From NCBI GenBank assembly GCA_048881705.1, contig JBHLSH010000085.1:1-15649 (forward strand): a stretch of 15,649 nucleotides of DNA, in the 5' to 3' direction. The notes below the pieces were generated by a model, which saw nothing but the letters and a program-made list of their open reading frames with translations, had not been told where the DNA came from and did no database searches. Of the stretch, positions 1-15,649 are shown piece by piece. This DNA comes from Candidatus Heimdallarchaeota archaeon (GTDB lineage Archaea > Asgardarchaeota > Heimdallarchaeia > Hodarchaeales > Hodarchaeaceae). Both the position numbers and the translations under genes were made by a program. Each line of letters opens with the position of its first letter. Positions within the stretch are counted from its first letter, which is position 1.

Positions 1-1307
1 AGTAGAACCGCTAGGAAAAACGAGAGTAGTAGAGAGAGCAAAGCTACCGTTACTATGACGGTTCCAAAGGGTTCAGTCTGAAGTTCAGAAAGATATTTAT
101 CCACAAGGGTTTTATAACGAAGATTTTTACCAATGCTTACTTCTGCATGGAAAAGAGCATCATTTCCGTCTGTCCCCCAATCAATCTCACTATATCCAAA
201 GATGGGTTCAGCGTTTCTAAAACTAGCTTCGGCAATATCAAGCGAATCTGCTGCTTCTGTCAATAAATCAGCATATCGGTCCAAATTGTAGCCTAGATTG
301 GATAAATTTAATTGATATTGATTCGTTTGCACTGAAAGTTTCTCTGCAATTGATAAGGACAACATAACGAAGGATACGTTCGCATTTTGATACCCTAATG
401 GTTCAATCTGTTTCTCGATAGTAACCCATCCAACCTCTTTCGTGTGAAACAGAATCTTAACATCAAGTGACTTATTTAAAGGCAAGAAGGAAATAATGTC
501 CCTAGATCCCTGAGCAAGGGCGAAGCTAGCGTAAGCTACAGGGATCTCAAGAAGGAGTTTCCCTTGATAATAGGCCTGGATGGTGATAATAGAAGCTTCG
601 ATATTGTCACGAAGAAAAAGAGGAATGTGATCAAAGCTATTCAGATGAGAAATACCGCTAAGGGCGAGGAAGGCAACAGGTACTAAACGAAGTTTTAAGT
701 TGTACAAGAGAAACGGAGAAAAATCTATCGTATTTAGGACAGGGATAAACGTGAAATTTGAAATTAATGGGTAGGAACCGTTTCCAAATGAAATTGCGAA
801 CACTCCAATAAAATCATCTGAAGATACATTGACTGAATCTGAAGTTCTATTTATACTGAATCCTGTGAGTGGATTTGACGCTGTAAAGCCGATTATTGAA
901 CTGAAAGACAGATCCATTGAAAATGTGTTATTAGTCTTGAAAAGGAGAATAAACGATGGGAGAGAAATATTGGAAAAATAATCCACGGCGGTTCCATTTA
1001 TGTACAATCCTGCAGAGACGCCAATCGAGGAGACATTTTCAGCTCTCTCCCTTTCTAAATCAGATAGAGATGTCTCAAACGATAATAATAGCTGTTTGGC
1101 CTGATCTGGCTCGGTTAACATTAGCTCTGTTAGCCAAGAAACCGGAATATCTGACCAATCATCATCTAACTCCCAGATGTTTGATGAGGTGGTAGGATCT
1201 AACGACCTAAGAGGATAATCATTGTACACAGGGTTCTGATTACTGTACTCTAAAAAATGAATGAAAAGAATTAATAGGAAAGTAAAAGCGACGAAATTTC
1301 GGCCCAC
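1..1307 (-). CDS. Large secreted/membrane-anchored protein, 3'-truncated by the window edge (about 435 aa visible); possibly a FtsX/MacB-type permease with a big ectodomain or a surface glycoprotein
   Basis: Manual translation of the minus frame (codons 1307-1305 down to 5-3) shows no stop; the nearest in-frame upstream stop is TAA at 1343-1341. The first start codon is GTG at 1307. The N-terminus MGRNFVAFTFLLILFIHFLEYS is a signal peptide or anchor. There are 11 N-x-S/T sequons, and a hydrophobic helix VIVTVALLSLLLSFFLAVL lies at the window edge. Absent from the ORF track. Confidence 0.85.
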   Translation of the reverse strand, partial: MGRNFVAFTFLLILFIHFLEYSNQNPVYNDYPLRSLDPTTSSNIWELDDDWSDIPVSWLTELMLTEPDQAKQLLLSFETSLSDLERERAENVSSIGVSAGLYINGTAVDYFSNISLPSFILLFKTNNTFSMDLSFSSIIGFTASNPLTGFSINRTSDSVNVSSDDFIGVFAISFGNGSYPLISNFTFIPVLNTIDFSPFLLYNLKLRLVPVAFLALSGISHLNSFDHIPLFLRDNIEASIITIQAYYQGKLLLEIPVAYASFALAQGSRDIISFLPLNKSLDVKILFHTKEVGWVTIEKQIEPLGYQNANVSFVMLSLSIAEKLSVQTNQYQLNLSNLGYNLDRYADLLTEAADSLDIAEASFRNAEPIFGYSEIDWGTDGNDALFHAEVSIGKNLRYKTLVDKYLSELQTEPFGTVIVTVALLSLLLSFFLAVL

Positions 1308-1337
1308 AACAAATCGATTTAGTACTCCTACCCACAG

Positions 1338-1347
1338 ATTTTAAAAT
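1338..1347. promoter_or_regulatory. Candidate bidirectional TATA-like element ATTTTAAAAT
   Basis: Perfect 10-bp AT palindrome in the 64-bp gap between divergent starts at 1307 (-) and 1372 (+), about 25-40 bp from each. Confidence 0.4.
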
Positions 1348-1357
1348 TTTTGACGTC

Positions 1358-1362
1358 AGGAG
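1358..1362 (+). promoter_or_regulatory. Shine-Dalgarno site AGGAG for the permease at 1372
   Basis: AGGAG 9 nt upstream of ATG 1372. Confidence 0.55.
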
Positions 1363-1371
1363 TTAGTTATC

Positions 1372-2019
1372 ATGGAAAAGCCCTCACTCCCCGATTTTCT
1401 TGAATCCCCAGATAATGCACTTGATTTTAGACCATTTACATTATTTCGGCTCGCACTATCAAACATTGGAAATCGATTCAGAAGGTACTTGGTCATCCTC
1501 TTTGGAATCATATTGACATCTTGCCTCGTGATCATTATCCGCGGTTATACCGTTGCTATAGATATTGTGGAAGATATCCAGATAAGTACAAGCATTTTAT
1601 TCTATGGTACGTTAGTTACCGTCATATGCTTCGGTTTAGTTGCCATTGCTATTACATCAACAATTTTTTTAGCAATTACTGAGCGGATAGAAGAGATCGG
1701 ATTGTATCGAATATGTGGGGCCAATTCTCGAGATGTTTTCATTCTTTTTGAAATCGAATCTCTTCTCATTGGGTGCTTGGGATTATTATCTGGATCCTTG
1801 GTCGGAGCCATTCTTTTTTTCCTGGACTTATCCCGTACTCTTACAAGAACTACATTGGCGGATTTTCTCCTCACTCATCCTGTAGTTATGACATCACTTG
1901 TTGAAACTTTTTTCTTTTTAGTTCCCTTCATTTTTCTGGTTGTAGTGGTTTCCTCACTTATTCCCGTCATCCATGCGGTACGTATGGAAGTCAACGATAC
2001 CATAAGACATCACGTTTAA
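1372..2019 (+). CDS. FtsX/MacB-family ABC transporter permease, minimal form with no extracytoplasmic domain
   Basis: N-terminal amphipathic helix FRLALSNIGNRFRR, then TM1; family motif AITERIEEIGLYRICGA...FEIESLLIGCLGLLSG; C-terminal SLIPVIHAVRME. Four hydrophobic segments in 215 aa. Confidence 0.88.
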   Translation: MEKPSLPDFLESPDNALDFRPFTLFRLALSNIGNRFRRYLVILFGIILTSCLVIIIRGYTVAIDIVEDIQISTSILFYGTLVTVICFGLVAIAITSTIFLAITERIEEIGLYRICGANSRDVFILFEIESLLIGCLGLLSGSLVGAILFFLDLSRTLTRTTLADFLLTHPVVMTSLVETFFFLVPFIFLVVVVSSLIPVIHAVRMEVNDTIRHHV

Positions 2020-2037
2020 TCCAGTGAGCAGGGGATC

Positions 2038-2724
2038 TTGTTGATATTCCTTCAAAGAGTTAATCGCGGATTTTCCGAGCCTGATGGAACCAGGCTAAAG
2101 GTATTGGAAGATATTACCTTAAAAATTCAAGAAGGCCAGTTGATCGTTATTCAAGGCCCAAGTGGAAGCGGAAAAACAACCCTGTTAAATCTTATAGCGG
2201 GAATTCTTCCACCCACAAGTGGAAAAATCTTCTTTCGTGGTATAAATCTTTCTCTGCTGGGTTTAAAGGAATTGGCTGTTTTTCGCTTAAAGTACTTGGG
2301 TTATTTGTTTCAGCACTGGAACCTTCTTCCCTTTTTGACTGCCCGTGAGAACATTGAGATGCCTGCCAAAATCCTCGGAACTCCTTATCTTATTAGACAT
2401 CAAAAAGTGGAAAAGATCGCCCTTTCTTTGGGGATTCATGAACGACTTGATAATATGGCGGAAGAACTTTCAGGAGGTCAGAAACAACGTGCTGCCCTAG
2501 CTCGAGCTCTAATTAATGACCCTATCCTCCTATTGGCGGATGAGCCAACAAGCAGTCTTGACACCCAAACCCGCTCCGAAATGGTAACAATTCTGGAAGA
2601 TCGAAAAAACAACCATAATCTAAGTATGCTTATAACAACACACGATCCGTACTTTACAGAAGTTGCTGATAAAATTTACTCTCTTGAGGATGGGACTCTC
2701 CAGAGCCAAAATTTTCCCAAATGA
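2038..2724 (+). CDS. ABC transporter ATP-binding protein, LolD/MacB/FtsE-like (subunit 1)
   Basis: Walker A GPSGSGKTT, Q-loop GYLFQ, signature LSGGQKQR, Walker B/D-loop LLLADEPTSSLD, H-loop TTHD. TTG start. Confidence 0.95.
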   Translation: MLIFLQRVNRGFSEPDGTRLKVLEDITLKIQEGQLIVIQGPSGSGKTTLLNLIAGILPPTSGKIFFRGINLSLLGLKELAVFRLKYLGYLFQHWNLLPFLTARENIEMPAKILGTPYLIRHQKVEKIALSLGIHERLDNMAEELSGGQKQRAALARALINDPILLLADEPTSSLDTQTRSEMVTILEDRKNNHNLSMLITTHDPYFTEVADKIYSLEDGTLQSQNFPK

Positions 2725-2736
2725 GAAGGATTTTCT

Positions 2737-3408
2737 GTGATTCTCGAAGTTAAAAACCTGACAAAGGCTTATCAGGTTGGAAACCAAAAAATTCTGGCCC
2801 TAAATCGGCTTACCTATTCCTTTCCACTACGCCGTATACACATCGTAATTGGACGATCAGGCTCAGGAAAAACTACTTTACTTTCGCTGTTGTCCCTTCT
2901 TGACACACCAACAAGCGGAAGTATATTTTTGGATAATCTCTCTTTTGAAAAGCTGGCCCCCAAATCCTATGCCTCCATATGGAACAATTATTTCGGTTTT
3001 GTATTTCAGGAAGCGAACCTAATTGGCGTGAAGACTGCATATCACAATATCGAACTTCCTTTACTATTCAGAGGTATTCCCCGCCAGGTACGAAACCGAT
3101 TGGTAACAGAGACCGCTGAACGATTAGGAATTAAAGAAAAACTTGATCAGAAAGCTTTTAGACTATCTGGAGGGCAAAAACAACGAGTCGCAATTGCCCG
3201 AGAGTTGATTAAAAGCCCCGTTATTCTCTTTGCGGATGAACCTACGGGAAATTTGGATGATACGTCATCTACTAAGATAGTTTCAGAACTCAGGAGGATT
3301 AGTGAAGAAACAGGGGTTACTCTCATTATTGCGACTCATGACCTCCGTTTCAGGAAGCTTTCATCTCACATTCTTGCATTAGAAGATGGAAAAATCCAAT
3401 CATCTTGA
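2737..3408 (+). CDS. ABC transporter ATP-binding protein, LolD/MacB/FtsE-like (subunit 2)
   Basis: Walker A GRSGSGKTT, GFVFQ, LSGGQKQR, ILFADEPTGNLD, ATHD. GTG start preceded by GAAGGA. Confidence 0.95.
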   Translation: MILEVKNLTKAYQVGNQKILALNRLTYSFPLRRIHIVIGRSGSGKTTLLSLLSLLDTPTSGSIFLDNLSFEKLAPKSYASIWNNYFGFVFQEANLIGVKTAYHNIELPLLFRGIPRQVRNRLVTETAERLGIKEKLDQKAFRLSGGQKQRVAIARELIKSPVILFADEPTGNLDDTSSTKIVSELRRISEETGVTLIIATHDLRFRKLSSHILALEDGKIQSS

Positions 3409-4536
3409 TTAAGTCTCTCTTAAGGTTAAACGACTACCAAATATGAATAAGATAACAAATAGAAGCTGAACTACCAAGTCTACATTCCAAGGCGTGAGTA
3501 TGAGGCCTTCGATGGAAATTTGACGTAGAAGGTTTACTCCATAAGTCGTGGGGATGAGGTAAGCTACCCAACGTACAACCTCCGGTATTTGATTAAGTGG
3601 AATAATAATACCTGACAGGAGGAGCGCTGGAAGAATCACTAGGGGTACAAATTGAATAGCTTGAAATTCATTACGTGCATAGGAGGATAAGAAAATGGCA
3701 AGAACAAGACCCGTCCATCCACAAACCACAGCTCCAATGTATAATGAAACAAGTTCCGCAAGTCCGAAGGCCAGCTGAATGTTAAACAATATACTTGCGG
3801 CGATTAGAATTACGGTGGTTTGGAAAAACGATAGGATGCTAAATGCTCCCAAGTATCCAAAAATGATCTCTCCTTTATCGTATGGACACTGTAGAAGGAG
3901 ATCGAGAGTTCCTGCCTTTCTTTCTCCTATAAGATTCATGATAATTAGTATGAAAGATAAAAAGAAGACACCAAAAATAATCATGGCCGGGGCAAAGAAT
4001 TCAATTGTCGTTAGATCCTCTCCATAGGCATAGGAGATTTCAACACCCAAATTTCCTCGAAATTCCCCAATCGCATCCTGAAATGCTTGCTGAAACGCCG
4101 CCAGAACAACCACCCCTACTTGCGGGTTAGAATTGTCGAGATAGAGTTGAATCGAAACATTTTCGCCGCTTAGAGAAGCGACGTTTGATGTGAAATTCTC
4201 AGGGACAATGATCGCACAAACAAATCTCTTTTCTTCAACCGCTCGTTTTGCAGTTTCAAAATCATCCGTTAAATTGATAACGTCCACTTTTTGGGATTCC
4301 TCCAAGTTGGTTTTCATCTGTTTACCAATGGAGGGGATAAGAAATGGAGGAAAAATTACAGATGCGTCGCTATCCTGATTTATGACTATAATCGGGACGT
4401 GATTAATTTCTCCTCCAAATGCCACGCCAAAAAGCGCAATATACATTAACGGGGCCATGAAAGCTAAACCTAAGGTACGGTGGTCACGAAGAAGTTGCTT
4501 CCATATTCGTTTTGTTACAAGGTAGGCCAACCGCAC
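3409..4536 (-). CDS. ABC-2 type exporter permease (YbhS/YhhJ-like) with extracellular domain
   Basis: KQLLRDHRTLGLAFMAP TM1, VPIIVINQD start of the ectodomain, ERKAGTLDLLLQCP motif, five further TM segments, LLSGIIIPLNQIP...YLIPTTY. GTG start 1 nt after the ATPase stop. Confidence 0.93.
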   Translation of the reverse strand: MRLAYLVTKRIWKQLLRDHRTLGLAFMAPLMYIALFGVAFGGEINHVPIIVINQDSDASVIFPPFLIPSIGKQMKTNLEESQKVDVINLTDDFETAKRAVEEKRFVCAIIVPENFTSNVASLSGENVSIQLYLDNSNPQVGVVVLAAFQQAFQDAIGEFRGNLGVEISYAYGEDLTTIEFFAPAMIIFGVFFLSFILIIMNLIGERKAGTLDLLLQCPYDKGEIIFGYLGAFSILSFFQTTVILIAASILFNIQLAFGLAELVSLYIGAVVCGWTGLVLAIFLSSYARNEFQAIQFVPLVILPALLLSGIIIPLNQIPEVVRWVAYLIPTTYGVNLLRQISIEGLILTPWNVDLVVQLLFVILFIFGSRLTLRET

Positions 4537-4537
4537 G

Positions 4538-5299
4538 CTATAAAACCCCCTGTTGAGTATCAGAAATTAGATTGAGAAACATTTCTTCCATATTCTGGGA
4601 ATTGGTTTTCACCATTAAATTTCGAGGAGTATCAATCGCAACCATCCGTCCATCTCGCATCACTCCAACTCGATCGGCCCATTCGGCCTCATTTAGATAA
4701 TGCGTGGTTACCAAGATCGTTGTTCCATCTTTACGGGCCTTTTCTCGAAAATATTGCCAGAAATCTCGACGTAACACAGGATCAAGGCCGACTGTTGGTT
4801 CATCGAGAAATGCAATTTTAGGATTATTTACCATAGCAGCCGCCAAAGCAGTCCGTTGCTGAGTTCCTCCAGATAAATGAACCGCCAATTTACCTTGATG
4901 ATCAGTGAGTGATAGTTTCTCGATCATAAGATCAGTATTGATTCGTGTTTGATTAGTAGTGAGCCCTTTAGCTTGTGCAAAGAATTGAATATTCTCACGG
5001 GCCGTAAGGAGATCATATAACGCTCGTTTTTGTGGCAAATACCCCATTATGCTTCTTAGTCTCTTTTTTTCCTGAGGGATAGTTAATCCTTTAACTTGAA
5101 TACTTCCTCCAGATTCCGCCTTCAGGGTTCCCAAGAGGAGGCGAATGGTTGTGGTCTTGCCAGCTGCATTAGGGCCTACCAAGCAAAAAACCTCCCCCTG
5201 ATTAACTCGGAGAGTAAGGTCGTCAACAGCAAGCACATTTCCAAACAGTTTTGAAACATTAGAAATCTCAATGTCATAAACCATTTGTATCACTGACAT
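4538..5299 (-). CDS. ABC-2 type (multidrug-family) ATP-binding protein
   Basis: Walker A GPNAAGKTT, GYLPQ, LSGGTQQR, AFLDEPTVGLDP, TTHY. Confidence 0.95.
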   Translation of the reverse strand: MSVIQMVYDIEISNVSKLFGNVLAVDDLTLRVNQGEVFCLVGPNAAGKTTTIRLLLGTLKAESGGSIQVKGLTIPQEKKRLRSIMGYLPQKRALYDLLTARENIQFFAQAKGLTTNQTRINTDLMIEKLSLTDHQGKLAVHLSGGTQQRTALAAAMVNNPKIAFLDEPTVGLDPVLRRDFWQYFREKARKDGTTILVTTHYLNEAEWADRVGVMRDGRMVAIDTPRNLMVKTNSQNMEEMFLNLISDTQQGVL

Positions 5300-5329
5300 G
5301 ATGAAGACAGTTGAGGTGCGAATAGAAGG

Positions 5330-5336
5330 AAAAAAA
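5330..5336 (-). terminator. Possible archaeal oligo-T terminator for the response regulator
   Basis: T7 run on the minus strand about 45 nt after the stop at 5381. Ambiguous, because it also lies in the upstream region of the 5299 gene. Confidence 0.25.
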
Positions 5337-5380
5337 GCATTTCAGAAGAGAGCAATTTCACTACTTTAGGCTTGTTAAAG

Positions 5381-6292
5381 CTAAAGTGGATGGGTCATGA
5401 AAATCTTGCGAGTCTGATCCAAAAAATTCTCGTTCAGTTCTTCCATGGTTGAATAGGCTCCAAGTAGTTCGTCGAGTTGTTTTTCGATTGTTGCTCTGTT
5501 TGGAAGGACACTGCGGAATAATACTGGGAAGAGAACAACCACAAGACCGTAGTTTGCGCCTATGGTATTCTGTATCCGCTTATCAGTAAAATCCTTTGAG
5601 ACCATTTGAAAGGCATACACCAATCCGCGATACTTTTCATAATTTGGAACAGGAAGTTCAAAGAGGCCTCGGGCATAATCGTGACCAGCTCCCGTTGCCG
5701 ACATATAGTATGTACCGATTTTAATCAGAAAGTTTTCCTTCTCCATATCTGTGATTGAATCTTCAAACGGTAATCTTGATGTTAAAAAAGGCTCTGGTCC
5801 GACTTCTCCAAACTTAAAAACAGATACAGAGAGTTGTTCTGGATTTTCTGCTAGTTGTCGAGCTAATACGGTTTCCTGCCGTGCCCGATGTTCAAGTAAT
5901 ACCTGAGTTATGGTCTGTTTCAAGTTATCAGGTTCAAACATTTCTTCTTTGGTTAAATAATCTTGGACTCCCAGTTTCATTGCCTGTACGGCTACTCGTT
6001 CAGAGCCTAAACCAGTTATCATGATGATCGGGACTTCTCGGTTTAGACGGCGAATTTCCTCGATGACTTCGATTCCTGACTTTCCAGGGAGGGAGTAATC
6101 CACAAGGATTAGATTAAAGGCATTACCTTCTTTTATTTTTCTAATAGCATCCTCTCCAGTTTCAAATACCATGATGCTATTAATTCCGGCTTCTTTTATT
6201 CTCTTGATGAAAAGATATTGATGATCCCTGGAATCCTCAACAAGTAGAACCTTCGCGTCAGCTATAGGGTCGAATTCATCCTTCGATGCCAT
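5381..6292 (-). CDS. Response regulator: intact receiver domain plus a ~150-aa C-terminal domain of probable longin/uDENN-like fold
   Basis: Receiver: acidic pair E19-D20 (VLLVED), phosphoacceptor D65 (LILVDYSLPG), T93 (IMITG), K115 (DYLTK). C-terminal residues 154-303 start LSVSVFKFGEVGP and show no HTH or enzyme motif. Confidence 0.92.
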   Translation of the reverse strand: MASKDEFDPIADAKVLLVEDSRDHQYLFIKRIKEAGINSIMVFETGEDAIRKIKEGNAFNLILVDYSLPGKSGIEVIEEIRRLNREVPIIMITGLGSERVAVQAMKLGVQDYLTKEEMFEPDNLKQTITQVLLEHRARQETVLARQLAENPEQLSVSVFKFGEVGPEPFLTSRLPFEDSITDMEKENFLIKIGTYYMSATGAGHDYARGLFELPVPNYEKYRGLVYAFQMVSKDFTDKRIQNTIGANYGLVVVLFPVLFRSVLPNRATIEKQLDELLGAYSTMEELNENFLDQTRKIFMTHPL

Positions 6293-6499
6293 GCTTAATA
6301 CCTAACATCAAGCTAAATTAATTTTAGACTACGTTAGTACAATTCCAGCCAAAATCATTCCGAACAATCTGATCTTGCACTGGAGAGTAAATTCCTTTCT
6401 TGTTTGATAGGGCAATTTTGGTTCTAAACTTTTTCTTATAACTTATTAGTTTAATTCATTTTATTTATCTTCGTGGAAAATTTCGGGGTCAAGACTCAA

Positions 6500-7507
6500 T
6501 TACATCGGCAAATAACCTTGGTTTTTGAACCATTCGTATGATTCCCGAATCGTTGTCTCCATATCTTTTTGAGGGGTAAACCCGAGTTCGTTCCTAATCT
6601 TCTGGTCATTAAAGCGTCTTGAAGATGCAAATTTCGTAACTCTATATCTATTAAGAGTAGTTTTTTTCCCCGTGATTTTAGCAAAAACCTCAGAGAGTGT
6701 CGCAATCGTGTAAACCAGACGATAATTCAAATGCCGAGGAGGTTTGGATGGTTTAATCGTATCTACAATGAAATTGATAAAATCAATAAATAGACATTCA
6801 AAAGATTTTAAATTATAGGCCTGCCCTTTCGATTTTTGCTGTTTTTCTGCAATAAGTAGCAAAGCTTTGCAAAGGTCAAAAGGATGGATCCAGGTTGTAT
6901 AGACTTGTCGACCGCGAAATATCGGGAGTTTGCGTTCATAGATCGCCTTGAAGATCTGAAACATCGTTTTTTTGTCTTTTGGCCCAATAATACTTGGGGG
7001 GCGCACTATGCTAAAATTATTCCACCCTTGGCTCTGTGAAAAATCCCAAATACTCTTTTCTTGGTAAGCTTTGCTTTTTTGATAAATTCTTGTAGGATTA
7101 AATGGAGTGTTTTCGTCTATGGGTATATCAGGTATAAAATGACCATAAACCCCTGTTGAGGAAACGTGTGCGATGAAGGGATCTGTGCTAGACTGATAAC
7201 AGGCGTTAATCAGGTTATTCATACCCTCTACATTTACCCTATATAACTCAGTCCAGCCAGCCCAGTCATCTACTAGTGAAGCGAGATTGTAAACAACTTC
7301 AACATCTTTTAATGCATTTTTCAAACTAGAAACATCATTCAAATCTGCTTTAACCGGAATAAGCCCTAATGCCTCAATATTGGTTTTACTAACGTTGTCT
7401 CGGCAGATTACTCGAATAGAGTCGTCCTTCTTTCCATAAGTATTCATCAAAAGTTCATTGAGGAACCCCCCCAGAAAACCTGTTCCTCCAGTTACCAACG
7501 AAACCAC
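6500..7507 (-). CDS. NAD-dependent epimerase/dehydratase, extended SDR (3-beta-HSD/OleD-like subgroup)
   Basis: TGGTGFLG cofactor motif, YNLAS, HVSSTGVYG (catalytic Ser), YQKSK (YxxxK), IVRPPSIIGP, C-terminal KIRNELGFTP. GTG start with GAGGT 6 nt upstream (7518-7514). Confidence 0.92.
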   Translation of the reverse strand: MVSLVTGGTGFLGGFLNELLMNTYGKKDDSIRVICRDNVSKTNIEALGLIPVKADLNDVSSLKNALKDVEVVYNLASLVDDWAGWTELYRVNVEGMNNLINACYQSSTDPFIAHVSSTGVYGHFIPDIPIDENTPFNPTRIYQKSKAYQEKSIWDFSQSQGWNNFSIVRPPSIIGPKDKKTMFQIFKAIYERKLPIFRGRQVYTTWIHPFDLCKALLLIAEKQQKSKGQAYNLKSFECLFIDFINFIVDTIKPSKPPRHLNYRLVYTIATLSEVFAKITGKKTTLNRYRVTKFASSRRFNDQKIRNELGFTPQKDMETTIRESYEWFKNQGYLPM

Positions 7508-7623
7508 GGATATACCTCAAGGGGGACTAAAATGCCTAGTTTTAACTCTGTTCACAGGGAGATTCCAGTCTGTTTCACGTTATAAGACTTTTCCGTTTGG
7601 AAAATGTAGACAAGATTTCTAGT

Positions 7624-8394
7624 TTAGCCATTTTTAAGAAACGAATCCAGGTTTTCTAAAGTTTTGTGATTTTGTATCATCTCATAGTCTTTATCAGAGA
7701 CTGTAAATCCTATGAATTTTCTTTTGTTGCGTGAACATGCTGTTAACAAGTTATTGGATGCCAGAAAAGGATCCAAAACCAAAGCCCCTTCATTACTAGC
7801 AATTCGAATACATTTTTCCAGGATGGAATATCCCACAGTCTGATTATTTTCATTACTCCTGGATTGATAAGAGGGAATCCAGACATCCTCAAAATAGAGT
7901 TTCCCCTTGGAACTAGAATATTCAGAAATCCTATTGAAGACTCGACTCCTGTCCTCTTTAAGTGATAACTTCGTGATGTACAAAACATGGGAATGAATCG
8001 GATTAAATTGTTTTTTTAACCCTATATCATGGTTGGAGGTGGGATGTTGCCAGATAATATGGTTAACCAACCGAAACCCTGTGATATTAATTGCATTCAG
8101 AAGAAATCGGAGATTAGTCCAGTGACAGAAAATAAATCCACATGCAATATGACTCATTGCTCTTTTTGCTTGATTTAACCATTCTACTGAAAAATCCTGG
8201 TAGTTCTTATTTGGAATAATTCCATACCTATGTTGAAAATGCTTTTGAAATCTGATAGATGATAGAGTACCCTCTAGAGGGCCGGCCTGATATACTGGTT
8301 CCGTTACCAGGAGGTCAACACTAGAAGACCTGATTTTCGCCATACCAACTCTACAATCTTCAGTGTAAATCATATTGGGTTTAAGATATCCCAC
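7624..8394 (-). CDS. N4/N6 DNA methyltransferase-fold protein (beta-class motif order), probably catalytically inactive
   Basis: Scaffold matches: IYTEDC, SVDLLVT, NHIIW, ILEKCIRIASNEGALVLDPF, RNKRKFIG. The catalytic DPPY reads EPVY and the SAM-binding FxGxG reads FLASN. ORF is intact. Confidence 0.8.
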   Translation of the reverse strand: MGYLKPNMIYTEDCRVGMAKIRSSSVDLLVTEPVYQAGPLEGTLSSIRFQKHFQHRYGIIPNKNYQDFSVEWLNQAKRAMSHIACGFIFCHWTNLRFLLNAINITGFRLVNHIIWQHPTSNHDIGLKKQFNPIHSHVLYITKLSLKEDRSRVFNRISEYSSSKGKLYFEDVWIPSYQSRSNENNQTVGYSILEKCIRIASNEGALVLDPFLASNNLLTACSRNKRKFIGFTVSDKDYEMIQNHKTLENLDSFLKNG

Positions 8395-8399
8395 AGTAT

Positions 8400-9782
8400 T
8401 TACTCCACCAATGAGAACTTAGGGGGCATTAGTTGCCGAACTATGTCCCTATAAATCATTGCGAAGTCATTCATTGATTTTAACATAATAAATTCATCGG
8501 TACCATGGATACCACCTCCCTCTGGTCCAAGATCTATGACAGGAATGTTATAACGGGACAGAAATCGGGCATCAGATGCCCCTTCCTGTTCACATGGCTC
8601 AGAAACCAATGAATGTTTCTCCAGAACTGTACTGGCAGTTTTAACCAAACGATGTTCTTTTGAAGTATAAAAATAGCCAGATGAAGGTTTGACTTCAATG
8701 TCTGCATGTATCGAAAATGCATTGAGCCTAGATTTAATTGCGTAAGCCAGAATAGGGGCTTTTTCAGGAGACAAAAAAGCGCGTACGTCGAGTTCAACCT
8801 GAGTACCGGTAGTGGGGGAGTATATAACGATATTTGGGTTCATTGTAATTCCAAATTCGCTAGGAATTTCGGTTTCAAGCTGCGTTCCATCAAGAAGAAC
8901 CATTCCCCGCATGGCTCGCAAGATGGATGTTAGATTTTCATCATAGGTCTGAATGGAACCGTTAGAAGTTGGTTTAACAACTTTCGCGAGACAATCATCT
9001 GGAATTACGTTTTTCTTAACCCAGGATCCTGTTAAATCCTGAATTTTCCAATTTCTATTTAGATGAAGTAGTTTAGAAAGAGCTAAAATCGCATGCTGAT
9101 CCACACCACGTACAAAATATGCTGAATGTCTGTTTGGGTCTCCAAAAATCTTAGTATACGTTCTTAAGTTTTCAATCTTTCCATTAACGGATTTGATACC
9201 CGGTGGAACAGTTAAGGAAACTCCAAAACCTGCTCGACGCTTATAAACGACACGAGGACCCCCATCGACATTTATTACAAATTTCGGCTGTATTCCTTTC
9301 TTGCTTGCTTCTTCAAAAAATAATTTTGCGCCATGCTGCCCTCCCGTTTCCTCATCTGTTGAGAAAAAAAAGCCAATTTTCGGAAGTCCATCAAATTGTT
9401 GTTGACATAGATCTTGGTACATTAATAAAGACGAGACAACCGAACCTTTACAGTCCTTACTTCCTCGTCCATAAGCCCGGCCATTTTCAATCCGTAGAGA
9501 AAAGGGATCCGAACTCCAACCGTCACTCACTGGAACGACATCCAGATGCCCGATGAAGAGTATATCAACCCCAATGTCCAAGTTGGGAGTCAAGTAGATC
9601 GAACCAAAGTTATGATCACGAAATATCGTCGTTTTGATATTTGGATTCCATACAGTAATCAAGTCTTTGACATAATCCAGAACCTCAACATCTGGAATTA
9701 GCATTTTTTGAGGGTCGTTCACAGTTTCATAACTAATTAACTTGCGAAGTATCTGTTTACCAGAGATATTATTCCCGTTCAT
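8400..9782 (-). CDS. M20/M25/M40 family metallo-hydrolase (DapE/ArgE-like, resembling the Thermococcales type)
   Basis: GHLDVVP, YGRGSKDCKG, DEETGG, NVDG, GASDARF and IHGTDE supply all five metal ligands. Also RHSAY, KNVIP and LDVRA. GGAGG (9797-9793) lies upstream of ATG. Confidence 0.93.
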   Translation of the reverse strand: MNGNNISGKQILRKLISYETVNDPQKMLIPDVEVLDYVKDLITVWNPNIKTTIFRDHNFGSIYLTPNLDIGVDILFIGHLDVVPVSDGWSSDPFSLRIENGRAYGRGSKDCKGSVVSSLLMYQDLCQQQFDGLPKIGFFFSTDEETGGQHGAKLFFEEASKKGIQPKFVINVDGGPRVVYKRRAGFGVSLTVPPGIKSVNGKIENLRTYTKIFGDPNRHSAYFVRGVDQHAILALSKLLHLNRNWKIQDLTGSWVKKNVIPDDCLAKVVKPTSNGSIQTYDENLTSILRAMRGMVLLDGTQLETEIPSEFGITMNPNIVIYSPTTGTQVELDVRAFLSPEKAPILAYAIKSRLNAFSIHADIEVKPSSGYFYTSKEHRLVKTASTVLEKHSLVSEPCEQEGASDARFLSRYNIPVIDLGPEGGGIHGTDEFIMLKSMNDFAMIYRDIVRQLMPPKFSLVE

Positions 9783-9804
9783 TCAACTTTGGCCTCCCAA
9801 TTCA

Positions 9805-11001
9805 TCACATTAGAGCCAGATATTTTTGAAGTCTTTTTTCTAGCCGGTTACTGAGTCCAATTATGATTGATTTCTGAGAACCTAAATCGAGCACTTCCAA
9901 TATATGAAGAAGTGCAGCATTCTGTGCATTAAATCCTTTCATTATCATAGTTTTGCTGAAATGATCCTTCGTACTCGCCCACCAGGTAGAACATGAGTAC
10001 TGTGCTCGAGCCACCGCTTTTAAAGCGTGACGTACATCGTCATTCGTTTCATCAGGAGTTAAAGACAACAGGAATTCAGCCAGTTCCGATATTAAGTCCC
10101 CATGGTAGTTCAATAAATCATGAATGGCATTTCCCGGATATGCCCATAGGGGAAAGGGAATTCCCCGATATAGGTCTTCTTCAGATGTACTCCAGCTAGC
10201 ACTTCTAAACTCCTGAACTGCTTTAGTAGGAAGCGTTAAGAGATCCGAAACCGTCTTGGTTTCCCCCAACTTGAGAAGTTCGATGAAAAACCTATAATAA
10301 TGCTTATGATGCTCACCAAAAGTTTCTATATCGGTAGCCCAAACTAACGTACCATCAGGATTTGATCGATGAAGGGAATTGAAATGTTCCTGAGCATTGG
10401 ATAAGGCAGGGTACCTCTTGAAAGAAATGTTATTTGAAATTTCGCGATTCCGATTTACCAAATAAAGATCCTCAGTCTGAGTGAAATAATACAGATGCGT
10501 AGTTAAGGGAGGAGGCGCGAAAGAATTCGATCTTATTGCGATCTCTGGTATAATTAAGTACTTAAAACCGAGAGTTTCTACTAATTTAATGACTTCATAA
10601 GATACTGCGAGTTCGGGAGGCCAGAATCCGATCGGTGCCCATAGGTTACCAAATACTTCTTTATTGATTTGATGATTCAATTTAATTTGATAAGCAGCCT
10701 CTTTAGGGGAAATTAAAGGAAGAATAGGATGATATGCTCCTGATTCTAGGAACTCGACTTGGCCGTTTCGTGCTAGTTCTTCATATCCTGCAATTACATG
10801 TGGATAATCAAGTGCCAATTGTTCAGTAAGGCTAGCATTGATATTGAGCGTAATTTTTATCTCAGGGAACGAAACCAATTGTTCTGCTACTGGGACATAA
10901 CAATTTTCAACAATGCGTTTCAATATCTTTGGATCTTGCGATGGAGGTTGGTACGCATGAAGAACAGCCGCAATTGGGATTGAATGATAAGCCGCTACCA
11001 C
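9805..11001 (-). CDS. Glycoside hydrolase family 57 protein
   Basis: GH57 conserved regions: HAYQP, ESGAYHPILPL, GFWPPEL (nucleophile Glu), TDIETFGEH (acid/base Asp), AQYSCSTWW. GTG start. Confidence 0.92.
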   Translation of the reverse strand: MVAAYHSIPIAAVLHAYQPPSQDPKILKRIVENCYVPVAEQLVSFPEIKITLNINASLTEQLALDYPHVIAGYEELARNGQVEFLESGAYHPILPLISPKEAAYQIKLNHQINKEVFGNLWAPIGFWPPELAVSYEVIKLVETLGFKYLIIPEIAIRSNSFAPPPLTTHLYYFTQTEDLYLVNRNREISNNISFKRYPALSNAQEHFNSLHRSNPDGTLVWATDIETFGEHHKHYYRFFIELLKLGETKTVSDLLTLPTKAVQEFRSASWSTSEEDLYRGIPFPLWAYPGNAIHDLLNYHGDLISELAEFLLSLTPDETNDDVRHALKAVARAQYSCSTWWASTKDHFSKTMIMKGFNAQNAALLHILEVLDLGSQKSIIIGLSNRLEKRLQKYLALM

Positions 11002-11031
11002 AGCGTTAACGCCCTGTTATGGATAAGCGGT

Positions 11032-12087
11032 CTAGTATCCACGTGTTAATTCCCAAAGTAATTTGTTAAGTTCGGCCCTTCTCGATTTCGTAGGTTTTTT
11101 ATCCTTTTCTTGATCATCCATTTGAGTTTCGGGATCGGCCTCTTCTAATGGTGGCATTGGAGGCGGTTCGAGTAGGTCAGATGATTCAGTTTCCCTCTCA
11201 TTTATGGCAGTTGTATCATTCTCAACCTCGCGGCCAAATTCTGGCTCTCTTTCTACCAGATCTGATGTGAATGTGGTATCTGAAGATGTTTCCTGGATTA
11301 CATTCTCTGAAGTGCCAAAGAAATCTTGGGCCAAATCTTCTAACGATTGATATACATCGTCTGGTTGCTCTTCTTTAACTGTTTGAGAATTTATACCAAG
11401 AGAGGCATCCTCTGACCCCTGATCATATTTTCTTTCCTGATCGTATGTCGGCGAACCGACCTCTTCTTCAAGAAGTAGTTCTAATGGACTCTTTTCTTCA
11501 GGAACTTGGTCGGTTTCAAGTGGCTTCACGCCAAAAAAAGAAGCGATATCAGTTTTTTGGTCAAATATTTCGGATTCGGGTACGGAACTTGCATCCTCAG
11601 TTGTTAAAGGAGTTTCACTTGAAACGCTAGCTTTCTCTAGCGATTGAAGCCGATCAGATGCAAACATGACAAAGGGTTCTGGAGGTTTTGAAGGAGAATC
11701 TTCAAGAGGTAATTGGGGAGGAATTCTTTCTCTCTGAGTAGTAGAAAATGCTTCTTCCTGGACTTCAGACTCCATCTTGGATAGTTCGGAAATTCGGGTT
11801 TCTAGAGTAGCGATCTCATTTTTATCAGGGATAAAATGCGGTCTTAAGGCATCTTGAGGTTCTGTATAAGGTTCAGGGGTGCCTTCAGGTTCCTTTATTG
11901 CACCTGAAGTTTTTAATAAGTTTAAAAAGGAATCAATCTCTAATTTTGCGATATCAACCTGGAAATCTCCCGATATGATACGTAAAGTAATAATTCGATC
12001 ATCAAGCATGATTCCACTTAGGCATATCTGACCGCCATCATAATCTAGGCACCAGGATACTTCTTTCCTTCGGAATTCAACATTCAT
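11032..12087 (-). CDS. Hypothetical protein: ~62-aa N-terminal globular domain, long acidic low-complexity region, short C-terminal amphipathic helix
   Basis: 351-aa ORF overlapping the upstream gene by ATGA. Residues ~63-335 are rich in E/D/S/T/P/Q with few hydrophobics. Ends KSRRAELNKLLWELTRGY. Confidence 0.85.
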   Translation of the reverse strand: MNVEFRRKEVSWCLDYDGGQICLSGIMLDDRIITLRIISGDFQVDIAKLEIDSFLNLLKTSGAIKEPEGTPEPYTEPQDALRPHFIPDKNEIATLETRISELSKMESEVQEEAFSTTQRERIPPQLPLEDSPSKPPEPFVMFASDRLQSLEKASVSSETPLTTEDASSVPESEIFDQKTDIASFFGVKPLETDQVPEEKSPLELLLEEEVGSPTYDQERKYDQGSEDASLGINSQTVKEEQPDDVYQSLEDLAQDFFGTSENVIQETSSDTTFTSDLVEREPEFGREVENDTTAINERETESSDLLEPPPMPPLEEADPETQMDDQEKDKKPTKSRRAELNKLLWELTRGY

Positions 12088-12296
12088 TTTTCAGACCCGA
12101 CCGTATCCAAGAACTGATTTAGAAATTCGAGAAACTGGTGGATTTCCTGTTCCTTCAATACAAGTTGATGGCCACCCGCTTTTAAGGTGACACTTCTTGC
12201 ACCATGTTCATGATTGATCAAATGAACTTCAAGGAGATCACCCGACTCCAACCTTAATCCCGTCGTTGTGTCAATTGTTTTATCAATGATCCTCAA
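12084..12296 (-). CDS. Small hypothetical protein (70 aa), paralog of the N-terminal domain of the downstream gene
   Basis: TTG start after AAGGAAA; 4-nt ATGA overlap with the next gene; local alignment with the 351-aa protein gives 10 identities in about 30 positions. Confidence 0.75.
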   Translation of the reverse strand: MRIIDKTIDTTTGLRLESGDLLEVHLINHEHGARSVTLKAGGHQLVLKEQEIHQFLEFLNQFLDTVGSEK

Positions 12297-12615
12297 TTTC
12301 CTTACCGAACCAGAACCGTCCTACTGAATATCCTCTATAGATGAATTCTTCTTAAGCCTTTTCAATTATCAAACTTGGATTAAGTGGTTTTAGACTCTAT
12401 TCCATATCTCCGACAATTTCAGGCATCATGGAGGGATGAGTTCCTCTGCGCAATACAACGAGGATAAAGCGTTCTTACTCCCTCGGTGGGAATTATTCAC
12501 AGAAAAGGGGGGAATTCTGCGTTTTCATATGAGGTTCCGTGCTTGATAGTTATCGAAAATCTTGGAAATAGTTATATGCCACCCAAATCCGGAATCCCCA
12601 GTCTATTGCGAGAAG

Positions 12616-12945
12616 TTAGCGATAAAAACGTAGTAGGTCATCCCTTCCCTGATCATCTTCAGCAAAGCTTTGAATTATATGAAACAAGTCCCAAACCAGC
12701 TCGCTCGCTCTTCGCCCCCGTTTGGTTAGCACATAGTGATTTTCGATCCCGCCCTCTCCCATTTCCCGATAAACAAGACCAAATTCATGCAAATCATTCA
12801 ATCTTGAAAGAGCGATGGAAGGTTTTTTACATCCAATAGCGGTACAAATTTGCTCAAAACTCCTTCCTTTAGGATTAAAATGCAGGTACTGGAGTATAAG
12901 AAGCGAATACTCTTTTTCAAGACGTTTCAAAGGATTAGAAGACAC
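12616..12945 (-). CDS. Winged helix-turn-helix transcriptional regulator, HxlR/MarR-like
   Basis: LLILQYL helix 1, RSFEQICTAIG helix 2, ALSRLNDLHEFGLVYR recognition helix, wing ending YVLTKRGR. 109 aa, GTG start. Confidence 0.85.
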   Translation of the reverse strand: MSSNPLKRLEKEYSLLILQYLHFNPKGRSFEQICTAIGCKKPSIALSRLNDLHEFGLVYREMGEGGIENHYVLTKRGRRASELVWDLFHIIQSFAEDDQGRDDLLRFYR

Positions 12946-13015
12946 GTGGGAATTCCTCGACCCGTTATCAGGGGTTCTGTCTCATTTTATCAATACTTCA
13001 TCAGGAGTGATTGTG

Positions 13016-13027
13016 AATTCATGAATT
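13016..13027. promoter_or_regulatory. Candidate operator, perfect palindrome AATTCATGAATT
   Basis: 12-bp perfect inverted repeat in the intergenic region, 71-82 bp upstream of the HxlR-like start. Confidence 0.35.
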
Positions 13028-13151
13028 TGCGCACGGTTTTGCAGTATGGCCTGATATAATTTTTATTTGTAGGTAGGCGTTATCATTGGTTTTTAACTTT
13101 TCAATGATTTCAAGTATTACTGTTTCCCGTATGTGGTGGGAAATACCTTTT

Positions 13152-13164
13152 AAAAATAAAGAAA
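13152..13164 (-). terminator. Possible oligo-T terminator after the histidine kinase
   Basis: TTTCTTTATTTTT on the minus strand, beginning 3 nt after the stop codon at 13167. Confidence 0.35.
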
Positions 13165-13166
13165 GT

Positions 13167-14642
13167 TCAGTGCTTTGGTATTTCAACTCTCACTACTGAT
13201 CCTTTGTTCTTTCCAGAAGATTCAATCTCAATCTTTCCGAATAGGATTTCCTCTACAATCTTCTTGGTGATAGACAATCCTAATCCCGTTCCTGTGGATC
13301 CTGATTCGAATTTTGTGAATGGAGTAAACACTCGAGTTAAATCCTGTTCTGTAAATCCATATCCGTTGTCTTTTACAGTAATATGAACAGATGATAAATT
13401 TTTTACCCGTCGTTCCTCCAAGAACACTTCAATCTTCCCAGTTTCCATTGGTGAGTACTTGATTGCGTTGTCGATTATATTCTGTAATACACGTAGAATC
13501 AATTCCCGGTTTCCTACGATTTCAAGCTCTGAGGGAAGAAACACCTGAAAATCCTGATTTCTTTGAATTAATTGGGGAAGAAATGCGATTTTGAGCTCAT
13601 CAATCAGCTCAACTAGATCGAAAGTTTCTTGATTGCTTATGTATTTGTCTCGCTGATAATCCAAGCGCTCATATTCAAGGATCGAGTCAATCATAACCAC
13701 CATGCGTTTGGAATTACTGATGATAACCTCAACATGCTTTTTTACTTCAGGAGAAATAGGGCCTATAAGTCCATCCCGTAATAATTCCCCAAATCCTAGA
13801 ATTGCAGATAATGGAGATTTGAGATCATGAGTCACTGAGGAAAGGAGTTGGCTCTTCTCGGCAAAACGTTTCTTCAAGTCTCTGTATTTGATTACATAGA
13901 AAAAGTCAGTTTCTCGCTTCTTTTGCTCTAAATCCGTCTTTACTTCGACTAGTGGCAATAAATGTGCTAAAGATGCCTCTAAAATATCATTTTGGGTCTT
14001 GGTAAGGAAGAGTTCTTTATTTAAACGATCCTTCTCCAGTTCCTTGAGTTTCAATTCTTCAAGAAGTAGCCATATAGGTTGATAAATTTGCCTGAGGCTT
14101 GATGGAAACGATTCCTCTCCCTTTTTTTCACTGTAAAAGAGATTTGGAAGGACTTGTGAGGGGTTCAGGCAGAAAAAAGGGTATCGCTGTGCAATCTTAA
14201 AGATCATTTGCGATTTCAGTTTTTTCTCCAAGAAAATCGCATATACGGAATATTTGATGTCCCTATCGATTAGTTTCAAGATTAAGGTAGTTTCCGTATA
14301 AAGGACAAATTTCCTTGTCACAGCGACTCGGGAAAAATCAAGGTACACTGCAATATGGTTGATGGAACTGGGCAACAACGATACGATATTTTCCAATTCT
14401 TTTTGATATTTAATTCTAAAGGTTTTTGAGAGCGTTTTCTTGGGTAGAAGAGTAATATTATGAATATCGAATCCCTCTCTTTGATAGGAAGGAAGTTTGT
14501 CCAAGTCATAGCTTTTCTTAGAGAATAAAAACAAGCAATTACTCTGTTTTCTCCGTGAAAGGGCAGATTTGAGAAAAGATGCCAGACGATCTTCGTCAGC
14601 AAACAAACAAAAAATTCTATCGGGCTCTTCTACCATTTCCAC
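13167..14642 (-). CDS. Soluble sensor histidine kinase (HisKA + HATPase_c) with degenerate MEDS-like N-terminal domain and coiled-coil linker
   Basis: H-box VTHDLKSPL, N-box LQNIIDNAIKYS, G1 VKDNGYG, F-box VFTPF, G2 GTGLGLSITKKIV. No TM segment. Start is GTG 14642 or ATG 14636. Confidence 0.93.
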   Translation of the reverse strand: MEMVEEPDRIFCLFADEDRLASFLKSALSRRKQSNCLFLFSKKSYDLDKLPSYQREGFDIHNITLLPKKTLSKTFRIKYQKELENIVSLLPSSINHIAVYLDFSRVAVTRKFVLYTETTLILKLIDRDIKYSVYAIFLEKKLKSQMIFKIAQRYPFFCLNPSQVLPNLFYSEKKGEESFPSSLRQIYQPIWLLLEELKLKELEKDRLNKELFLTKTQNDILEASLAHLLPLVEVKTDLEQKKRETDFFYVIKYRDLKKRFAEKSQLLSSVTHDLKSPLSAILGFGELLRDGLIGPISPEVKKHVEVIISNSKRMVVMIDSILEYERLDYQRDKYISNQETFDLVELIDELKIAFLPQLIQRNQDFQVFLPSELEIVGNRELILRVLQNIIDNAIKYSPMETGKIEVFLEERRVKNLSSVHITVKDNGYGFTEQDLTRVFTPFTKFESGSTGTGLGLSITKKIVEEILFGKIEIESSGKNKGSVVRVEIPKH

Positions 14643-14951
14643 AGTTTTTTGCTCCGAACCCTAGAATTGAAAACAGTTATTATCGTTAAAGATATTTTCA
14701 ATCACCTAGTACATTTTTCAAGTTTAGGTTTTTGATTCCGGGATTAAGATTCCAGTCCATCCTATTTATTTATTTTCGAATATGCTTGTACTAAGGAATC
14801 AAAGGCCCATTCAGCTGATGTCAGCGAATTCCGGCGCTCAAGAACAGCAAGATAAAAAAACGTAAAAGCTTATGACTTTCATGAACCTTATACAACCGTA
14901 TTAAAATCAGAGGCCTGAAATAAATTAGCTTCGATCTTCTTTCTTACCGAT

Positions 14952-14989
14952 ATTAGACTTTCTAGCTTAAACCACAAATATAGTCTAAT
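14952..14989. repeat. 8-bp inverted repeat ATTAGACT-N22-AGTCTAAT
   Basis: Arms at 14952-14959 and 14982-14989, beginning 6 nt downstream of the nitroreductase stop codon. No U-tract follows on the minus strand. Confidence 0.5.
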
Positions 14990-14994
14990 TGAAC

Positions 14995-15534: not shown

Positions 15535-15557
15535 TTACCGATCCTCTGGTACAATCG

Positions 15558-15563
15558 TTATAA
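15558..15563 (-). promoter_or_regulatory. Candidate TATA box TTATAA for the nitroreductase-like gene
   Basis: Located 24-29 bp upstream of ATG 15534. Confidence 0.4.
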
Positions 15564-15582
15564 CTCGCCCAACCATAGCCGG

Positions 15583-15594
15583 AATTTATAAATT
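15583..15594. promoter_or_regulatory. Perfect palindrome AATTTATAAATT (operator or TATA element)
   Basis: 12-bp perfect inverted repeat 49-60 bp upstream of the nitroreductase start; same outer arms as the 13016-13027 palindrome. Confidence 0.35.
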
Positions 15595-15649
15595 GGCCTT
15601 AATCTTCCCAGGCCTTAGAATTCAATCATTTATCTTTTACATCCTCCCC

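Follow-up and report, generated by a model that had tools for sequence, protein, structure and literature searches.

The 15,649-nucleotide stretch of DNA analysed here (the window: positions 1 to 15,649, forward strand, of contig JBHLSH010000085.1, assembly GCA_048881705.1, from the Asgard archaeon Candidatus Heimdallarchaeota of the order Hodarchaeales) encodes on its reverse strand a 303-residue protein, in which a two-component receiver (REC) is followed by a long helix and a C-terminal domain with the predicted fold of a longin. On balance, the evidence inclines us to see in this protein an orphan response regulator with an output longin of the GTPase-activating protein (GAP) class, and thus a protein that regulates a Rag- or Arf-like small GTPase, probably as a GAP, under the control of phosphorylation. 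A previous interpretation made from the letters alone (hereafter the sequence-only reading) had proposed a receiver fused to a longin/uDENN-like domain as a possible link from phosphorelay to small-GTPase signalling. The residues and motifs which it quoted, E19, D20, D65, T93 and K115 in the receiver and VSVFKFGEVGP, EKENFLIKIGTYYMSAT, GLFELP, GLVYAFQM, TDKR and YGLVVVLFP in the C-terminal half, are all found at the positions given for them, and positions 5381-5833, to which it had drawn attention, comprise the codons for residues 154-303 plus the stop codon.

The nature of the C-terminal domain is most clearly approached by its predicted structure. The AlphaFold2 (AF2) model of residues 146-303, based on an alignment of the C-terminal domain (predicted local distance difference test, pLDDT, 85.7; predicted template modelling score, pTM, 0.83), consists of beta1 (155-161), beta2 (166-171), alpha1 (182-200), beta3 (209-214), beta4 (221-231), beta5 (246-256), alpha2 (257-278) and alpha3 (288-297), with strands assigned by DSSP in model numbering to residues 10-16, 21-26, 64-69, 76-86 and 101-111 and helices to 37-55, 112-133 and 143-152. 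The beta-beta-alpha-beta-beta-beta-alpha-alpha order anticipated from the sequence, which is the longin topology, is thus reproduced by the model. In Foldseek, only the two chains of 8yqg, a Lokiarchaeal Roadblock-Longin protein, match below E 1e-3 (E 5.5e-5), and the longin of 8yqg also heads the VIA-align comparison with 48,161 representative chains, complemented by a re-examination of the top 1000 Foldseek matches, with agreement between both approaches (Z 11.8 and 16% identity over 134 aligned residues, with a root-mean-square deviation (rmsd) of 3.3 A). Subsequent ranks are held by the longins of Lst4 (Z 10.4-10.9), of folliculin (FLCN; Z 10.2, 10.1 and 9.7, rmsd 3.3-3.6 A over 129-133 aligned residues) and of GATOR1/SEA chains (Z 8.3-8.6, with 8.3 for NPRL2, 6ces_N). 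SNARE longins (Z 6.6-7.5), TRAPP subunits (5.9-8.0), DENND1 (6.3-6.5) and roadblocks (about 6) score lower, an AP-1 sigma chain (Z 9.0) being the exception to the lower ranking of most other longins relative to those of GAP complexes. All 19 chains with Z of at least 8 belong to longin-containing entries, and the matches cover model residues 1-158. As judged from the model, the fold is confirmed as longin, and its nearest solved relatives among longins are those of GAP complexes. A roadblock instead of a longin was rejected on topology, as two C-terminal helices are present and an N-terminal helix packed in the roadblock manner is not, and roadblocks reach a Z of about 6 only.

The first folds that are neither longin nor roadblock, the IclR effector, GAF and PAS domains, appear at Z 5.5-6.2. 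Together with the co-occurrence of the domain with PAS and GAF in related proteins, and its position in the middle of proteins of the type PAS-longin-GAF-GAF and REC-longin-HATPase_c, these matches give some footing to the view that the longin-like domain serves as an alpha/beta sandwich for sensing or ligand binding, akin to PAS or GAF, and would integrate a small-molecule signal with phosphorylation and involve no GTPase. Longins with Z 8-12, on the other hand, occupy the first ~30 ranks, the two C-terminal helices represent longin topology, family members are fused to or adjoin small GTPases, and a ligand-pocket signature was not seen in the domain; a sensory role of this kind is considered improbable. 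As for the fold itself, a PAS/GAF-like, profilin-like or enzyme fold, which the sequence-only reading had named as outcomes that would speak against it, was rejected with Z of at most 6.2 versus 8-12 for longins.

On the level of primary sequence, neither the single sequence nor the profile of 42 aligned orthologues recovered a match to the C-terminal domain (~160 residues) in Pfam, NCBIfam or PDB, and the earlier statement that this half contains no standard output motif therefore holds. When 1.84 billion cluster representatives were searched exhaustively with a profile, 296 proteins were identified at E <=1e-3, from which 132 near-full-length domain pieces, 19-50% identical to the query, were aligned; all named members are of Asgard origin (Hodarchaeales, Heimdallarchaeota, Kariarchaeaceae, Odinarchaeota, Thorarchaeota, Promethearchaeota). 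The 132-row profile retrieved from PDB chance-level matches (E >=1; a GPCR fusion, a PLP-binding protein), with 8yqg, FLCN and NPRL2 not reached, and a Pfam scan of the 132 pieces gave a single weak match, to PF11704 Folliculin (E 3.5e-4, in 1/132). No Pfam model seems to exist for this group of longins.

Two short motifs point to the GAP-type longins in particular. A 2025 survey in Traffic (PMC12290439) describes a GP motif that closes the loop leading into strand 2; it is present in FLCN, NPRL2, SMCR8 and C9orf72 and missing in FNIP2, NPRL3, adaptins, TRAPP subunits and DENND proteins. According to the same survey, the motif adjoins the catalytic arginine finger, GP and arginine together constitute a GAP-longin signature, and both recur in Heimdallarchaeial longins (PMC12290439). 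The F-x-x-x-G-P feature singled out by the sequence-only reading corresponds to this published GP motif. Among the 132 superfamily pieces, its glycine is retained in 128 (97%) and its proline in 96 (73%). Only six positions are conserved to at least 90%, namely G165, G203, G209, P214, D237 and R239, three of which (G203, G209 and P214) are located in or beside strand 3, G209 and P214 being each conserved in 130 of the 132 members. The GP and D-x-R motifs are near-invariant in these divergent proteins irrespective of architecture, including fusions to GTPases and paralogues encoded next to Rag-type genes.

The sequence surroundings of the arginine fingers FLCN R164 and NPRL2 R78 were located by a comparison of short sequence fragments with PDB chains and read K-D160-S-L-A-R164-G-F-Q-R-W-Y170-S-I-I in native FLCN numbering (6ulg_L) and H-K-K-Y-S-R78-N-A-L-L-F in NPRL2 (6ces_N). 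R164, R78 and R239 are each placed between two hydrophobic strand-like stretches and match in sequence position; in the family consensus D-p-R-x5-Y, the spacing from arginine to tyrosine is as in FLCN, with R239-Y248 being three residues wider. By position in the sequence, R239 is a candidate arginine finger analogous to R164 and R78, which would assign the output longin to the GAP-type class of folliculin, NPRL2 and SMCR8. The beta4-beta5 loop which carries R239 has the lowest confidence within the model (mean pLDDT 57 for model residues 91-100) and is therefore probably flexible; with the strand order 2-1-5-4-3 of the antiparallel sheet, the model suggests that it is located on the same sheet edge as the beta1-beta2 loop with the GP motif.

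Association with small GTPases was expected for homologues of the domain, and this expectation was borne out in part. Pfam scans of 101 multidomain representatives of the family revealed TPR and PAS domains as the most frequent partners (30 representatives each), followed by REC (24), GAF (9) and Ras-family GTPases (4), arranged in architectures such as REC-longin, REC-PAS-longin, REC-longin-HATPase_c, PAS-longin-GAF(-GAF-GAF), longin-PAS, TPR-longin and GTPase-longin. The REC, PAS, GAF and TPR partners place the longin in a signalling context. The four GTPase-longin fusions have an intact P-loop, DxxG and NKxD motif and retain the D-x-R loop, and three of them also GP. Among single proteins, P0151 (511 aa) is hybrid kinase-like, with the longin in the middle of REC-longin-HATPase_c and HisKA not detectable, and P0091, P0121 and P0191 (622-794 aa) equally carry the longin in the middle, as PAS-longin-GAF(-GAF-GAF).

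The genome itself provides further associations. In the 3.96-Mb assembly, which is about 91% complete, seven members of the longin family are accompanied by 54 matches to the Ras model above the Pfam cut-off, about nine strong Gtr1/RagA-type genes and 10 roadblock genes. Two of the longin paralogues, both of which retain GP and D-x-R, adjoin RagA-like genes (Table 1). On contig 46, the paralogue is the third gene of a same-strand run of five (RagA-like, unknown, longin, RagA-like, M50 protease) with gaps of 98, 18, 35 and 62 nt, and on contig 4 a paralogue directly borders one RagA-like gene and has another in its vicinity. The contig-46 paralogue has ~120 additional C-terminal residues. A Ste24-type CAAX prenyl protease (Peptidase_M48_N + M48) is encoded at 1607-2827 (-) of the contig-4 locus. 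The GTPase association of the family comprises these two paralogues and four Ras-family fusions, with GTPases being a minority fusion partner. A complete lack of such association among homologues, the other outcome that would have spoken against the sequence-only reading, is therefore not observed, and the reading is supported on both counts.

Table 1. Features of the receiver-longin gene, the candidate kinase and the Rag-adjacent longin paralogues (window positions unless a contig is named; for contigs 46 and 4, positions within the locus indicated)
Feature	Position	Strand	Basis or remark
REC-helix-longin response regulator gene, 303 aa	5381..6292	-	open reading frame list and translation; stop codon 5381-5383
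REC domain, residues 15-128	5909..6250	-	Pfam PF00072, E 5.4e-23, 81.7 bits versus cut-off 30.2
Acidic pair E19-D20	6233-6238	-	read from translation
Phospho-acceptor D65	6098-6100	-	kept in 36/42 orthologues
T93	6014-6016	-	kept in 37/42 orthologues
Aromatic switch Y112	5957-5959	-	kept in 42/42 orthologues
K115	5948-5950	-	kept in 38/42 orthologues
Continuous helix, 29 residues (121-149)	5846..5932	-	full-length AF2 model; extends REC alpha5 directly into longin strand 1
Longin domain, residues 154-303	5384..5833	-	AF2 model, Foldseek, VIA-align
GP motif G165-P166, end of beta1-beta2 loop, opens beta2	5795..5800	-	invariant in 42/42 orthologues
beta3 edge strand and turn, G209-P216, predicted homodimer interface core	5645..5668	-	residues 211-213 self-pair, expected error 1.9-2.0 A
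D237-K-R239, beta4-beta5 loop, candidate arginine finger	5576..5584	-	superfamily D 126/132, R 127/132 (96%)
Cytoplasmic HisKA/HATPase_c histidine kinase	13167..14642	-	Pfam; 6.9 kb upstream of the REC-longin gene, same strand
Contig 46, five-gene run (locus 12000-22000)	2984-8104	+	RagA-like 337 aa, unknown 314 aa, longin 266 aa, RagA-like 309 aa, M50 site-2-type protease
Contig 4, RagA-like GTPase (locus 59000-69000)	3108-4016	+	4-nt convergent overlap with longin paralogue gene
Contig 4, longin paralogue, 341 aa, longin N-terminal	4013-5038	-	abuts RagA-like gene
Contig 4, second RagA-like gene	7106-8008	-	about 2 kb from longin paralogue

Longins have been solved as dimers, and a homodimer is also predicted for the output domain. 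Modelled as a pair, residues 121-303 reach an ipSAE of 0.67, a mark attained by 20 of 30 proteins solved as one-chain pairs and by one among 23 proteins with single-chain structures, versus 0.00 for the best of three controls, with at least 62% of contacts shared between runs and a partner pLDDT of at least 83; the score may, however, reflect likeness to known dimers, because solved longin dimers exist. Besides the edge strand beta3, residues 260-270 and the terminal part of helix alpha1 contribute to the predicted interface, and the pairing via beta3 and alpha1 would correspond to the classical dimer mode of longins and roadblocks. A homodimer via beta3 is thereby supported by prediction. R260 and R266, invariant among the orthologues, lie within the modelled interface, and much of the invariance of the block 203-216 and of these two arginines would be explained by this location. 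The GP motif and R239 remain outside the predicted interface and are exposed.

The same dimer is compatible with a different role, in which the longin would be a non-catalytic pairing or scaffold module, with receiver phosphorylation controlling homo- or heterodimerisation with other longins or roadblocks, or in which it would act as a platform of the guanine nucleotide exchange factor (GEF) type or as an effector reading the GTP state, in all cases without an arginine finger. Most eukaryotic longins and roadblocks are indeed platforms or GEF subunits and not GAPs (PMC10933270, PMC13408092), the predicted dimer is canonical, the seven longin paralogues and 10 roadblock genes of the genome are possible hetero-partners, and part of the conservation is structural, because R260 and R266 are in the interface. 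However, GP and D-x-R, the two most conserved features of the family, are located on loops outside the predicted interface and match the GAP-longin signature, which was not found in the non-GAP longins examined (PMC12290439). We regard a scaffold, exchange or effector role as rather unlikely, if to be taken seriously. In a bolder form of the GAP-class reading, the protein would be a homodimeric GAP contained in one chain, switched by phosphorylation and directed at a Rag- or Arf-like GTPase; this is proposed tentatively, as a possibility that we consider somewhat less likely than not.

The N-terminal half of the protein is a canonical receiver, as had been stated: it matches PF00072, adopts the (beta-alpha)5 fold in the AF2 model and possesses the full residue set, kept in 36-42 of the 42 orthologues. 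In the full-length model (pLDDT 87.2, pTM 0.73), a single uninterrupted helix connects receiver and longin. The assembly contains seven receivers and five HisKA kinases only. The best-scoring of these five HisKA genes is the one located in the window, and its orthologue is found 7-19 kb upstream of REC-longin on the same strand in four of five genus relatives, with the fifth carrying it unlinked, 1.7 Mb off. This kinase is a candidate cognate kinase of the REC-longin protein; since the entire block is syntenic, the linkage supports a cognate pair weakly. The N-terminal ~250 aa of the kinase have no Pfam match.

Integrating these elements, a chain of events can be envisaged. A histidine kinase, possibly the one encoded at 13167-14642, would phosphorylate D65, upon which the T93/Y112 switch would alter the alpha4-beta5-alpha5 face of the receiver, a change that, considering receiver mechanics and the model, might be relayed via the continuous alpha5-linker helix. 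The relayed change would shift the pairing of the two longins, which are predicted to associate via their beta3 strands and alpha1 ends into a two-fold platform. Two-fold platforms are typical of longin and roadblock regulators. This platform would bind a Rag- or Arf-like small GTPase with G165-P166 and R239 facing the nucleotide pocket and stimulate GTP hydrolysis, as motif conservation and the likeness to FLCN and NPRL2 suggest. As the net effect, a His-Asp phosphorelay might determine whether a eukaryote-like small GTPase is in the GTP or the GDP state. The analysis shows what the domains are, how far the motifs are conserved, which partners the family is fused to and which genes adjoin the paralogues; the dimer is a prediction, and the type of GTPase targeted, a part of R239 in catalysis and the consequence of phosphorylation are inferred.

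Several observations weigh against this interpretation. A small GTPase gene adjoins the REC-longin gene neither in the window nor at the orthologous loci in four other genomes. GTPases constitute only 4/101 of the fusion partners, and in a quick tree, in which REC-bearing members are widely scattered and deep nodes are weak, the four GTPase fusions form together with six other REC-longins a clade (Shimodaira-Hasegawa-like approximate likelihood ratio test, SH-aLRT, 99) that excludes the 303-aa protein. Longins in the middle of proteins, as in PAS-longin-GAF and REC-longin-HATPase_c, suit a general signalling or dimerisation module equally with a GAP. Eukaryotic GAP longins are heterodimers with DENN or other extra domains, which are lacking in the 303-aa protein. 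Finally, the proposed homology to FLCN and NPRL2 rests on the modelled fold and two short motifs, because the profiles reach no eukaryotic longin nor 8yqg.

The REC-longin gene is real and under selection. A search with residues 145-303 identified 51 homologues of at least 50% identity, the full-length ones of which all consist of a receiver and the C-terminal domain; those named in their sources are response regulators from metagenome-assembled genomes of Hodarchaeales, Hodarchaeota, Heimdallarchaeota, Kariarchaeaceae, Thorarchaeota or Promethearchaeota. Orthologues of 300-322 aa share N-terminus and end with the 303-aa protein, and among the 42 aligned orthologues the C-terminal domain displays 31 invariant columns with a mean column identity of 65%. 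In a sample of 301 genomes of the phylum, clear orthologues (E <1e-60) were confined to the same GTDB genus, where 15 of the 21 genomes, this one counted, possess them, with weaker, paralogue-level matches spread across the class.

In its immediate surroundings, the gene is preceded on the same strand by genes for an NAD-dependent epimerase, an N6/N4 DNA methylase, an M20 peptidase and a GH57 enzyme and followed, after an 81-nt gap, by an ATP-binding cassette (ABC) ATPase and an ABC-2 permease. The order methylase-epimerase-regulator is kept at four orthologous loci, with variable genes downstream; a conserved operon with a small GTPase or a kinase was not found at the orthologous loci, and no gene of either type adjoins the regulator in the window. 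The downstream genes include the ABC pair at locus L046, an ICMT-like methyltransferase at L045 and, within one to five genes at three loci, a DRG/Obg-type GTPase (MMR_HSR1 + MMR_HSR1_Xtn + TGS; L044 9051-10226, L045 10711-11889, L046 12963-14141), which is not present in the window and the recurrence of which is probably synteny. It might be considered that the regulator acts on such neighbours, either on the ABC-2 exporter by protein-protein contact, since the ATPase and permease genes follow here and at L046, or on the DRG/Obg-type GTPase that recurs at the three loci. The ABC pair is, however, missing downstream at L044 and L045, and the variable distance to the DRG-type gene looks like ordinary synteny. 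We are not aware of any longin whose target is an ABC transporter or a GTPase of the Obg family, and an action on neighbouring gene products is regarded as very improbable. Each of the alternatives discussed, be it scaffold, sensor or regulator of its neighbours, fits the conservation of GP and D-x-R less well than the GAP-class reading.

Other observations concern the neighbourhood as such. The ICMT/PEMT-family gene of L045 (GCA_048938105.1, 9020-9676 (+)) is located directly downstream of the REC-longin orthologue, at this one locus only; taken with the CAAX protease encoded close to a longin paralogue, it hints at prenyl-processing enzymes in the vicinity of GTPase regulators. For the N6/N4 DNA methylase (7624-8394 (-)), a restriction partner is not visible in the window. 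The open reading frame at 11032-12087 (-) codes for 351 aa, in which a short structured N-terminus gives way to a long and very acidic low-complexity region rich in Pro, Glu and Ser, and has no Pfam match. At 3-1307 (-), a reading frame of more than 435 aa with open 3' end combines an N-terminal signal-like hydrophobic stretch, a second hydrophobic segment where the part read ends and many N-x-S/T sequons with no Pfam match; it probably encodes a glycosylated surface protein.

Longin-domain GAPs such as FLCN-FNIP, GATOR1 and C9orf72-SMCR8 control nutrient signalling, are encoded by disease genes and operate in large complexes with a debated catalytic mechanism. For their Asgard relatives, no biochemical test was present in any paper found. 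A protein of 303 residues that consists of a receiver and a longin, keeps GP and the loop arginine and is predicted to form a simple homodimer is a practical candidate to be tested. With such a protein it can be asked whether Asgard GP-motif longins have GAP activity, which Asgard small GTPases are targeted and whether prokaryotic phosphorelays fed into GTPase switches before eukaryotes arose. If the protein were a homodimeric GAP, an archaeal precursor of FLCN/GATOR1-type nutrient signalling would take its input directly from a His-Asp phosphorelay in archaea closely related to eukaryotes, and, because only two domains are involved, the protein would be unusually tractable for the analysis of the longin GAP mechanism and of pre-eukaryotic regulation.

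The combination of longins with two-component domains is not new as a concept. In its account of NPRL2-like longins, the work of Liu et al. (bioRxiv 10.1101/2020.10.19.343400, Fig. 5c; Nature 2021) presents many fusions to two-component domains in Asgard archaea and infers that growth signalling is wired via two-component systems, with regulators that are eukaryote-like. The 303-aa protein carries REC and longin in one chain and belongs to this class of an NPRL2/FLCN-type longin and a two-component domain in one Asgard polypeptide. The account of these fusions is a comparative-genomic survey without structure, motif analysis or experiment. The claim of the sequence-only reading that no characterised protein has this architecture stands insofar as no paper characterising a REC-longin protein was found in the literature on Asgard longins with a response regulator or receiver domain; as to novelty it is overstated, the architecture class as such having already been recorded in the survey. 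As the general idea has been published from comparative genomics, the value of the present analysis is a concrete, well-characterised candidate.

Among the eukaryotic systems, FLCN, which is the GAP subunit for RagC/D in FLCN-FNIP2 (6nzd_H, 8dhb_J, 6ulg_L), resembles the protein in the longin fold, the GP before beta2 and a D-x(1-3)-R after which an aromatic residue opens the next strand (D160...R164...Y170 in FLCN). In contrast to FLCN, the 303-aa protein has an N-terminal receiver, no DENN domain and no known hetero-partner of the FNIP type, with a homodimer being predicted instead, and identity is limited to 6-7%, with no profile match. NPRL2, the GAP subunit for RagA/B in GATOR1, shares the longin fold (Z 8.3-8.6), the GP motif and an arginine, R78, between two hydrophobic strands; unlike NPRL2, the 303-aa protein lacks the NPRL2-specific C-terminal domain and the partners NPRL3 and DEPDC5, and the likeness is structural only. 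The protein stops directly after longin helix alpha3, with neither a DENN nor an NPRL2-specific C-terminal domain, and is not classed as an orthologue of FLCN or NPRL2, because their C-terminal domains are absent and no sequence profile connects them. The Lokiarchaeal 8yqg, the best structural match, is equally an Asgard longin and was solved as a dimer, however fused to a roadblock and not to a receiver and not reached by the family profile. Fusions of longins and roadblocks to GTPases have been catalogued by Tran et al. (PMC10933270). A prokaryotic precedent for receiver proteins that together with roadblock/longin-type dimers control a Ras-like GTPase is the polarity module of Myxococcus xanthus, where RomR/RomX and the roadblock GAP MglB act on MglA (PMC13408092, PMC9481161). 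In this module, receiver and roadblock reside on separate proteins and a GP-motif longin is not involved, whereas the 303-aa protein unites receiver and GP-motif longin in one chain.

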